Virus record (IMG/VR): IMGVR_UViG_2558860170_000002
DNA: 37,042 nucleotides
Source of the DNA: a virus
Taxonomy: Duplodnaviria; Heunggongvirae; Uroviricota; Caudoviricetes
Strand: one strand, 5' to 3'
How positions within the stretch are numbered: the stretch's first letter is position 1; each line of letters opens with the position of its first letter. Shown one piece after another: positions 14,375 to 17,674 of the stretch. The translations under genes were made by a program, and so were the position numbers. The notes beneath the pieces are model-generated. The model was not told the DNA's origin, made no database searches, and saw nothing but the letters and a program-made list of their open reading frames with translations.

Positions 14375-15882
14375 TGTTCTGGAATAAGAAAAATAAAAAT
14401 TCAGAAACTAAACCCAAGAAGATTAAACAGGAACGTTCCTTAAAACAAAGTACCTTAAAACGAGATCTACAGGCAGTACGCAACACATCAGTAATGAACT
14501 TCGGATTCAATTCAAACTCAGGCAGCAATATCAACTTCCTTCTGATGAAAGCACTACCTACCTTCAGGGCTTTCTCACGTGATGCAGTACTTAAGAATCC
14601 TATTGGTCGTAAGTACATGAACCTATCGGTAGATGGCGTTGTAGGCTCTGATGGCCTGTACGTTAAACCTTCAGTAGAGATTGACGGTACTGAAGAAGAA
14701 ATCAACGGAATCAATCTAACCTTGGAAAAGCTCTTTGACCGTTGGGCATATGATGCTGATCGTTTTAGTGTTGATGGCTCATTAAGTTTTGACCTGTTTC
14801 AGCAGAACGCAGAGAAGGTAAGGGTCCAGGATGGTGAATGCTTTATTCGTATACACAATATTAATAATACCATCAAGTTAGAAATTCTCGATACGGTTCG
14901 TTTGCTTCAGTTAAATAATCAACGTTTGAGTAATGGTAATTATATTAGTAATGGTATTGAATTTGATAAATGGCATAAGCCAGTTAATTACTATTTCTGT
15001 AAATTCGATCCTGTTACCTATACTTATATCACTGGCGATTATGAAGTAATTCCCGCTGCGGAAATCTGTCACTACTTTATTGCTGATCAACAAGGCCAGG
15101 AACGCGGATTGCCGGACATGGTTGCAACTTCCAAATTAATGGAAGATCTCAAGAACTTCACTGAGGCTGCGTTAACTGCGAAACGTGTATCTGCATCGTC
15201 AATGGCTTTTATTACCAATAATAACGACACTACCAGTACTGATCTGTTAGGGGCTGATGAACGAGAAGAAGTTACACCAGTATATACAGAGTATTTTGAA
15301 GCTGGCTTTATTGGTGAGTTAGCCGAAGGGCAGGATATTAAAACTGTTACACCTACTAATGGTGTTGATGGGATTGATCAATTTACCAATGAATTGATGA
15401 ATCAGATCTCGATGGGTCTGAACATAACAAAGCAAGCCTTATTATCTGATACATCCAATGCTTCATTTAGTGCAAGCCGACTTACTGAGAAATTACAACA
15501 AACTACATTCCGTACCCGTACTAATGTACTAATCAGTAAAGTACTTAAACCAATTTATATCGCCTGGTTAAAGAACGAAATGCTAAATAACAATAAGTTA
15601 AATCTAAGTTTCTCGAGCTTTGATGATCTTATTTGTGCTCGGTATATTTCTCAAAAGCCAATTAGTTTAGATCCTGTAAAGGATATACAGGCTGAACTAC
15701 TCCAGTTAGAAGCAGGTATTAAATCTAAAACACAGGTTATTGCTGAGTTAGGCGGTGATCCAGTGAAGGTATTAGCAGAGGTACAGGCAGAAAAGGATAA
15801 AGAAAATAAAAACAAGGAAGTAATCCAGGATGGAAATGAAAAACCAGAAGAGGGAACTAACGAAACCCCTACAGGCGATTAA
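14374..15882 (+). CDS. portal protein
   Basis: 502 aa, positioned between the terminase and prohead protease genes; acidic C-terminal tail. Confidence 0.6.
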
Positions 15883-17674
15883 TACAGAATCGCGTACCAT
15901 CGAAGTAGCGTTTTGTTCAGAAACCCCTGTAGAACGTGAAATCAACGGTCAAATCTATAACGAAATTCTTCTATGTGGTTCCAGTAACGCAGACCTAACC
16001 CGCCTTAATAACAATGGGGCAGTACTCTTTAACCATAACCGTGATGATCTTATTGGTGCTGTAGTTGATGCACGAGTGGATGCTGATCGCGTTGGTAGAG
16101 CTACATTACGAATTAGCAGTACCGCCAACGATGAATGGGAAATGATTCAGGAAGGCGTACTAACCCATATTAGCATTGGCTATAACATTAATGATTATCA
16201 AATTGATGGTAATAATATCTATGTTACCAACTACGAAATTTATGAAATCTCATTAGTAACAGTACCTGCCGATCCTACCGTTGGGGTAGGTCGTTCAATG
16301 GACTCACAACTTGCATTGAAATCACTAAATAAAGAAGGTGAAACAATTCAAGAGGGTCAAATGGATATGGATAATCCAGAAAACGAAAAGGAATCAATTG
16401 TTGATAGTACTGAAGAAGTAAATGAAACAATTGAAGAGGCATTAGTAGAGCCATCGGTCGAATATGCAGAAGAAATCAAACAAGAATTAAGTGATGAAGA
16501 ACTTTTAGAAATTATCTCTACTCGACCTGATTTGCTCAATAAAGTACATGGTGAAGAACCAGAAAGTATAAATAGTACAGAAGATACTGAACGTGTTCGT
16601 GAATTAGAAGCACTCGGTAAAGTACTTAATATTGATGTATCTGAAGCAATTGAAACAGGAATTTCAATTTCAGATTTCAAACGTCAATTGAATGACATTA
16701 AACAAAATCCTCTTCATGATAAGGAAATCAAAGAAATGGATAATAAAAATCTATTAAAAGATATGGTACGTGCCATTAAAACTGGCGATAAATCTGCTCT
16801 TGAAGCATATGAACGTGGTATTAATGGTTTTGTACGTGCGGCTGTACCAAGTACTAATACTACTACCGCTGCTGGCGTTGTAGCTGATGACCTACAAGAT
16901 CAATACATTCCAGAACTACTAAAAATTTCTGCACTTGGTGAACTAAACACCACTGTTTATTCTGGCCTTGCAGGTCGCGGTACTCTAAGTATTCCAAAAG
17001 CGGCTGGTGTATCTCCGGTATTTAAATTCTATGGTGAAGCAGAAGCACAGGATGATTCTATTGCAAGCTTTACTAAAGTAACCCTAAGCCCTAAAGCTTT
17101 TGGTGGTGCTATTCCACTATCCAAACAAGCAATTCTAACGGCTCCAAATATTGAATCATTTGTACAAAGTGAACTACTACGGTATGCCGCTCAGGGTCTT
17201 GAGCAAAATGTAATGGATAAAGTAGTTGCCGCTGCTCCGGTGTTCAATGTTGAAACTGCTGGTTCTATTACTCTTGAAGATGTTCAGGGTGCAGTAGCGA
17301 AGCTGGCACAGGCTAACGTTGATATGCGTGGCGTTAAAGCTGTTATGAACGCTAAAACCCTAAGTACCCTACGTCAGATTGCAGTACTTGATAACACTGC
17401 TGCTAAAGCAATGGTTGAAGGTTATCGCAGTACTGAAATGTGGCTTGCTGATGAAGTACGTGTAGTGATTTCTGAATTCGTAGCAGATGGTACTATTCTA
17501 ATGGGCGATTTCTCCAATGTAATTCTCGCTAATTGGGAAGGGCAGGAAGTAGATTATGACGATACATCCTATCGTTCAAGTAACACTATCGTATATCGCG
17601 TATGGGATTACTCAGATATCGCACTTGCACACTCTGAAGCTTTCGTAAATATCGTTATTGGTAAAGCAGAATAA
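15830..17674 (+). CDS. fused prohead protease / scaffold-like linker / major capsid protein (HK97-like)
   Basis: N-terminal about 170 aa matches the HK97-family prohead protease pattern ([11 protein letters not shown]...ISIGY...[10 protein letters not shown]). A central acidic coiled-coil linker follows, then a C-terminal domain of about 300 aa with HK97-capsid character. Confidence 0.6.

Follow-up and report, generated by a model that had tools for sequence, protein, structure and literature searches.

The window analysed here, the whole 37,042-nucleotide (nt) stretch of IMG/VR record IMGVR_UViG_2558860170_000002, is a decaying or defective lambda-like siphovirus prophage, in which a single open reading frame (ORF) of 614 amino acids (aa) joins a prohead protease, a linker/scaffold and the major capsid protein. 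This ORF is a true gene of head morphogenesis, located in a lambda-like head module, and the fusion itself is already known and ordinary. The new element is a pair of nested-start signals within the fusion: two in-frame ATG codons, Met178 and Met303, each preceded by a conserved Shine-Dalgarno (SD) sequence, at which internal initiation would probably give nested in-frame products beside the full-length fusion. A limited literature search found no paper on nested products of protease-capsid fusions.

The complete fusion ORF occupies positions 15830..17674 on the + strand, begins with ATG and encodes a protein of 67.4 kDa, exactly as the earlier sequence-only reading of this DNA had described it. 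The SD sequence AAGGAA sits 10 nt 5' of the start ATG at 15830, and the first 53 nt of the ORF (15830..15882, +) overlap the portal gene of the lambda family (14374-15882) at its 3' end. Within this overlap, Lys7 (15848-15850) is encoded by AAG in all 9 aligned relatives (AAGAGGGAA), likely because of the dual-frame coding constraint with the portal C-terminus. The genes of the head module follow the order Nu1-like TerS, gpA-type TerL, head-tail joining protein, lambda-type portal, fusion and gpFII-like connector. The profile search with domain boundaries that the sequence-only reading had proposed, with a match to just one domain as the outcome speaking against a fusion, returned both domains on the same polypeptide: Peptidase_S78 (PF04586) at residues 61-153 (38.8 bits, Pfam gathering cut-off 21) and Phage_capsid (PF05065) at residues 350-608 (64.9 bits, cut-off 24.2). 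Furthermore, the profile of PHROG 617, "major head protein", aligns with nearly the entire polypeptide (E 9.5e-84; residues 3-607 to profile positions 6-620 of 626). A second match to the 614-aa ORF was phrog_4523, named "major head and protease protein".

Based on a 30-sequence alignment (A1, 47-91% identity) and AlphaFold2 models, the fusion can be divided into 5 parts: the protease domain (residues 1-155), a linker (156-253), a helical block (254-302), a short basic segment (303-336, isoelectric point [pI] 9.4) and the capsid domain (337-614). The linker (16295..16588, +) is hypervariable, rich in indels and acidic (31% Asp plus Glu, pI 4.05), and it retains conserved (L/I)-N-S motifs. It is predicted to be largely disordered, with AlphaFold2 assigning disorder to residues 145-221 (predicted local distance difference test [pLDDT] score of approximately 28) and helices to residues 222-318. 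Thus, of the acidic coiled-coil segment suggested previously, the acidity stands, but the coiled coil is not supported, the prediction being disorder followed by helices. The conserved helical block (16589..16735, +) is still recognizable in phages with 25% identity and plausibly represents the core of the scaffold.

Internal start site B (GATAAGGAAATCAAAGAA-ATG, 16718..16738, +) has its ATG at 16736 (Met303) and the SD motif AAGGA at 16721-16725. The start sites were compared across 44 representatives which are mutually <90% identical and 39-100% identical to the window, and AAGGA precedes the site-B ATG by 6-10 nt in all of them. Met303 is invariant amid a variable stretch, the DNA reading GAT-AAG-GAA-ATC-AAA-GAA-ATG. 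The codon of Lys298 is AAG in each of the 9 aligned relatives, and a misaligned tenth also has AAGGAT; in the other conserved Lys columns, AAG is found in 0-2 of 10 sequences, with the exception of Lys7 in the portal overlap, and the overall AAG frequency of these genes is 0.14-0.38. A codon-pair bias of Lys followed by Glu or Asp was considered as the cause of the AAG at Lys298 and rejected, with Lys before Glu/Asp being encoded by AAG in 36% of the cases (n = 268). Consistently, a motif-blind scan placed the strongest synonymous-constraint peak of the gene at residues 297-302, with an observed/expected ratio of 1.78, the top peak alone being used as evidence, given that the ratios are inflated over the linker, probably by local mosaicism. 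The predicted site-B product has 312 aa (33.4 kDa) and would consist of the capsid protein preceded by a basic propeptide of 34 aa.

Internal start site A (CAAGAGGGTCAA-ATG, 16349..16363, +), with its ATG at 16361 (Met178), lies in the disordered linker, 23 residues past the protease domain, and the predicted product of 437 aa (47.7 kDa) would comprise the scaffold and the capsid protein. An ATG with an SD of -5 kcal/mol or stronger is present at this position in 39 of the 44 representatives, compared to a linker background of 0.04-0.18. The residues encoded 5' of site A vary among relatives, yet the ATG and one of the motifs GAGG, AAGGA, GAAGG or GGAGG are retained. Equivalents of site A were also recognized in 6 distant phages, namely, R4C (GGAGG, -9.5), CRP-821 (AAGGAG, -8.2), VP882, DCP80, ep3, and phiHAP-1, with a linker background of 0.02-0.22. 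The SD energies of the 2 internal sites (-6.3 and -6.2) equal those of the real starts of the late operon, and site B resembles the ATAAGGAT consensus of this operon. At the other conserved Met codons, SD values were at background only. Met157 (16298-16300), the ATG of which directly follows the VGVGR/S motif at the end of the protease domain, shows an anti-SD pairing energy of -8.3 kcal/mol through a G-rich stretch, but was discarded as a start, being replaced by Leu or Ile in many relatives. Similarly, the synonymous-constraint peak at residues 245-251 was rejected as a start, as it corresponds to a conserved (L/I)-N-S motif. Two motifs of the general form (S/T)-(L/I)-N-(S/K) are kept in the hypervariable linker, at 16322-16333 (residues 165-168) and 16559-16570 (residues 244-247), and the second-strongest peak of synonymous constraint in the gene falls on the latter (codons AAT AGT); they may represent protease sites or short linear motifs.

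The domains flanking the linker have the features expected from a protease and a capsid protein, bearing out the HK97-type protease signature and the capsid-like C-terminal domain noted in the sequence-only reading. The protease domain (15830..16294, +) ends in a conserved VGxGR motif and is modelled as a beta-rich fold (AlphaFold2 pLDDT 83.5 when modelled alone). A sequence search with this domain against PDB gave no meaningful match; therefore, a fold search was used, in which the T4 prohead protease gp21 (5jbl) was the sole confident PDB match (Foldseek probability 1.00, template modelling score 0.55, a modest E of approximately 1e-2), in keeping with an assemblin-like prohead protease fold. 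His69 (codon 16034..16036, +) and Ser115 (codon 16172..16174, +) align with the catalytic residues His65 and Ser114 of HK97 gp4, and both are invariant in all 11 sequences aligned as well as throughout alignment A1, where Glu139, Ser141, and Asp148 are invariant too. Residues 1-155 can thus be assigned, by sequence and modelled fold, to the S78 (HK97 gp4-type) prohead proteases, with predicted proteolytic activity. The HK97-fold major capsid protein domain (16838..17671, +) was delineated by PF05065, by a sequence match to 8gta and by Foldseek, the best PDB matches of its model being the capsid proteins of R4C (8gta, 1.2e-15) and HK97 (1ohg, 1.2e-13), both with a probability of 1.00. The R4C homolog builds the icosahedral shell of the virion (PDB 8gta; PMC10276861).

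The sequence-only reading had also suggested looking for a conserved internal start or cleavage site, and candidates for both are present: besides start sites A and B, 2 conserved Arg residues mark the ends of the region that could be removed, each followed by a small residue. Arg155 (codon 16292..16294, +), within VGVGR/S, is a candidate site for freeing the protease domain; Gly154 and Arg155 are invariant in alignment A1, and in 52 of 54 diverse homologs this domain terminates in Gly-Arg, with Ser as the next residue in 45. Arg336 (codon 16835..16837, +) is a candidate maturation site, cleavage at which would leave a capsid protein of 278 aa (29.6 kDa); all 44 representatives have Arg here, as does each of the 10 distant phages in the alignment at the corresponding position. 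We propose both as cleavage sites on the grounds of this conservation. The virion chain of R4C (8gta, 268 aa) begins at approximately residue 362 of the 629-aa fusion ORF, 11 residues past the equivalent of Arg336, and although the N-terminus was not mapped, residue 362 being merely where the model starts, this fits with the loss of the N-terminal approximately 57% of the R4C homolog and lends indirect support to proteolytic processing.

Under the mechanism that we favor, ribosomes would initiate not only at the beginning of the ORF but also at the 2 internal in-frame ATGs, yielding 3 proteins with a common C-terminus: a 67-kDa protease-scaffold-capsid protein, a 48-kDa scaffold-capsid protein from Met178 and a 33-kDa capsid protein with a short propeptide from Met303. 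The 3 products would co-assemble via the common capsid domain, so that protease and scaffold, attached covalently to a minority of the shell subunits, would reach the procapsid interior in substoichiometric amounts. Subsequently, the protease would cut after Arg155 and Arg336 and degrade the linker, leaving the capsid protein of approximately 30 kDa. That one frame would in this way encode the whole head-shell assembly kit as 3 nested proteins, in ratios set by how strong the 3 ribosome-binding sites are, is a proposition for which we see the chances as about evenly balanced. If true, the nested starts would explain how such fusions avoid carrying approximately 400 proteases and scaffolds per capsid, and the annotation "major capsid protein" would hide 3 products. 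The fusion alone, being a common and annotated type of phage gene, changes nothing.

The most serious alternative is that only the 614-aa protein is made, such that each capsid subunit carries protease and scaffold in a 1:1 ratio, the proteases freeing themselves and their neighbours after assembly, and that the SD-like motifs reflect protein constraint, ribosome pausing or relics of formerly separate genes. We consider this possible, if somewhat doubtful, and still viable, particularly since some cultured members lack one or both sites. Indeed, one uninterrupted ORF is conserved everywhere, and site A is missing or weak in 5 of the 44 relatives; among viable cultured phages, S-LBS1, Murka, Mica, and Mano, where site A is at best weak, show neither site, and R4C and VP882 lack site B. 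Furthermore, the Lys298-Glu/Asp pair is partly conserved as protein in distant homologs, and the conservation at site B may in part have a cause at the protein level, for instance a role in cleavage. Several other points also weigh against the nested model: the Glu/Lys-rich linker makes purine-rich SD-like strings arise more readily, the sequences compared are phylogenetically related and the counts hence non-independent, and the cleavage sites are predicted from conservation alone. Literature searches for proteomic or N-terminal data on capsid processing in VP882, phiHAP-1, and R4C turned up no mention of protease removal or of multiple products. By contrast, a relic or a constraint acting on the protein alone leaves 3 observations unaccounted for: the invariant use of the rare AAG codon, the peak of synonymous constraint for the whole gene at residues 297-302, and the retention of an SD of variable sequence together with an ATG in a hypervariable, indel-rich linker across relatives of 39-100% identity and in 6 distant phages. 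The motifs also equal the ribosome-binding sites of the operon itself in consensus and strength. The self-contained maturation by a single polypeptide proposed in the sequence-only reading is probably too simple a view, considering the conserved internal SD and ATG sites, which suggest shorter products.

It is also conceivable, although we think it unlikely, that only one of the internal sites is real, be it the older site A or, within the enterobacterial clade, site B, and that the other is incidental. Compared to the distant phages, the enterobacterial clade has a shorter pre-core region; it also possesses the SD and ATG of site B, which are missing from R4C and VP882. Site B is the statistically cleaner of the two, given its presence in all representatives, its codon choice and the synonymous peak, whereas site A has the wider phylogenetic distribution, but lies in a Glu-rich context which makes synonymous tests uninformative. 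Nevertheless, both sites have the SD strength and spacing typical of the real starts in the operon, and the conservation of each clearly exceeds the linker background.

The frame on which the nested starts depend is widely distributed. With tblastn, the whole protein was recovered in one piece, at 96-99% query cover, in cultured phages (at least 29 phage records with an intact frame), including VP882, phiHAP-1, the Xanthomonas phages FoX1-5, M29, and Murka, Burkholderia phage Mica, Escherichia coli phage ep3, Synechococcus phage S-LBS1, and Roseobacter CRP phages; the homolog in Murka is annotated as "major capsid protein and protease". A search of 5.8 billion proteins yielded >100 clusters of 594-654 aa in which both Pfam domains are present, derived from Escherichia, Enterobacter, Citrobacter, Salmonella, Kosakonia, Klebsiella, and others, and when 1.84 billion cluster representatives were searched exhaustively, lengths of 570-690 aa were observed for nearly all of the top 150 matches. 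An E. coli protein in NCBI, named "phage major capsid protein", is 100% identical to the fusion, Shigella sonnei records contain a partial copy, and one JGI record bears the name [quoted passage not shown]. A megablast search with positions 14374-18405 against 5,426 complete E. coli genomes returned only a 35-nt match, and the element is therefore absent from that set. Comparable fusions have been described as "fused major capsid and protease" in the Rhodobacter RcC phages (PMC8601537), as a fusion of capsid protein and S78 protease in thaumarchaeal proviruses (PMC6563490) and as "major capsid and protease fusion" in actinophage announcements. Hence, the arrangement is indeed rarer than separate genes, as had been surmised, but far from rare, with annotations in PHROGs, NCBI, JGI, and published papers.

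The sequence-only reading had left room for an overlooked stop or frameshift, but the join proved to be a true one: with a length cut-off of 570 aa, the frame is uninterrupted in all 9 genomic loci and in 66 of the 80 loci on viral contigs. Among the remaining 14, 3 are cut by contig ends, 4 carry intact ORFs of 564 aa that belong to a clade with 31% identity and fall under the cut-off, and 7 are frameshifted, the break lying inside the capsid fold in 6. Frameshifts in the fusion gene were observed in many relatives (L084, L087, L089/L090, L096/L098/L099, L101, and L102/L103, with L102 also affected in the terminase and portal genes), which points to frequent prophage decay in Enterobacteriaceae or to assembly errors. 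No candidate for a naturally split gene survived inspection. In L084, where the break falls just past the protease domain, the protease part is without a start codon and looks decayed; the short homolog P0052 is a truncation at a contig end; and P0160 (L102 and L103, identical in DNA) and P0257 (L101) are frameshifted copies, in which the first frame continues past the Met of site B, while the capsid frame downstream of it offers only TTG or GTG codons devoid of an SD. The possibility that the N-terminus of P0257 represents the Met303 product was rejected for the same reason, this being a frameshifted copy. That the fusion is an artefact or a pseudogene, with a lost stop codon or a frameshift in a decaying prophage having joined separate protease and capsid genes, would be in line with the defective state of this prophage, which has an IS3-family element inserted in both the terminase gene and a tail gene, besides 2 further insertion sequence (IS) elements, and with the classical arrangement of separate genes, such as HK97 gp4 and gp5, but is highly improbable, because the frame is intact in cultured phages and hundreds of diverged relatives, PHROG 617 is a full-length family profile, and the interrupted relatives, not the fused form, are the pseudogenes, broken in the capsid fold or deprived of start codons.

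The prophage in the window is defective because 2 copies of an IS3-family element split its terminase and tail genes; therefore, virions are not expected from this copy, and the mass spectrometry of virions proposed in the sequence-only reading is not feasible with it. The 2 copies, of 1331 bp each, are 100% identical and inverted relative to one another (11001-12331, -, and 27230-28560, +), and encode a 136-aa HTH_Tnp_1 ORF and a 301-aa rve ORF. The former copy divides the gpA-type large terminase gene into an N-terminal piece (10598-11041) and the remainder (12372-13832), and the latter divides a gpJ-like tail gene (26717-27232 and 28524-30875). Recombination between the copies could invert the intervening 14.9-kb segment. 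An IS21-family element (5300-7269, -; IstA of 390 aa and IstB of 266 aa) and a second, different IS3-family element (30881-32085, -) stand out as islands of high guanine-cytosine (GC) content (0.51-0.54) compared to approximately 0.38 for the window. Downstream of the head genes are 2 tandem tail-tube paralogs, an 883-aa ORF (18423-21074, +) and a plain 157-aa major tail protein (21133-21606, +). The first approximately 140 aa of the 883-aa ORF are 31% identical to the 157-aa protein (E 2e-21), and the ORF then runs through four tandem repeats of 75 nt (25 aa each; 19158-19530) and a fibre-like region to an intramolecular-chaperone domain (Peptidase_S74) at the C-terminus. Such a combination of tube protein and fibre is unusual; locus L102 has a similar large S74-containing ORF after its head genes.

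Two of the phage records with homologs of the fusion deserve mention on their own account. The closest match in a cultured phage, at 30.6% identity, is found in Escherichia phage DCP80 (L012, PQ671644.1), a 141-kb record classed in Tevenvirinae, at the start of which (1734-7789) a lambda-like head module with TerL, portal and fusion genes is annotated as hypothetical proteins. This module is unexpected for a T4-like phage and could be due to a chimeric assembly or a misclassification. In Roseobacter phage CRP-821 (L018, PV211011.1), the annotation assigns 974 aa to the "major capsid protein", the protease domain of which ends at approximately residue 521 and the ORF of which overlaps that of the portal; probably, the start was placed too far upstream, unless the protein has an extra N-terminal domain.

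Comparison with known systems places the gene close to a number of described fusions and, with regard to its proposed translation, next to several nested protease-scaffold genes. The fusions of PHROG 617/4523 (VP882 gp07, phiHAP-1 ORF5, vB_DshS-R4C gp6, and Murka) have the same domain order and length and share the head context of TerL, head-tail joining protein, lambda-type portal and fusion, with no essential difference from the gene studied here; further named fusions are those of the Rhodobacter RcC-cluster phages, the SEA-PHAGES "major capsid and protease fusion protein" and those of the thaumarchaeal proviruses. HK97 gp4 and gp5 belong to the same protease family, with the His and Ser residues aligned, and have the same capsid fold, respectively, and with 225 + 385 = 610 aa they come near the 614 aa of the fusion, which looks like gp4 and gp5 joined head to tail. 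The delta domain of HK97 gp5 is an N-terminal scaffold on the capsid protein that is removed by the protease; likewise, the putative scaffold of the fusion is N-terminal to the capsid domain and predicted to be removed, and the predicted 48-kDa scaffold-capsid product resembles gp5 with its delta domain. In HK97, however, the genes are separate, lying 2 nt apart, the delta domain is a coiled coil and the protease is targeted non-covalently, whereas here the join is covalent and runs through an acidic disordered linker. As summarized in a preprint (doi 10.64898/2026.09.13.751334), protease and scaffold also share one self-processing polypeptide in P2 gpO. The capsid protein is not part of gpO, being encoded separately as gpN.

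In lambda C/Nu3, herpes simplex virus UL26/UL26.5 (HSV-1) and HFTV1 gp17/gp17.5, the long product carries the protease and an internal in-frame start past the protease domain gives a shorter assembly protein, presumably the more abundant one. The nesting of HFTV1 gp17/gp17.5 was shown by ribosome profiling in a preprint which cites the lambda and HSV-1 cases (doi 10.64898/2026.09.13.751334). These systems share with the fusion a layout in which a globular N-terminal domain is followed by a disordered, helix-rich region. In lambda, HSV-1, and HFTV1, the capsid protein is encoded by a separate gene and internal initiation was demonstrated experimentally, whereas in the fusion, for which initiation is inferred only, the nest would enter the capsid protein, maybe with 2 internal starts. 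If this holds, a bacterial example would join the nested capsid-maturation modules of tailed phages, archaeal viruses, and herpesviruses, extending the nesting of lambda C/Nu3 and UL26/UL26.5 into the capsid protein itself and providing a prokaryotic analogue of Gag/Gag-Pol.

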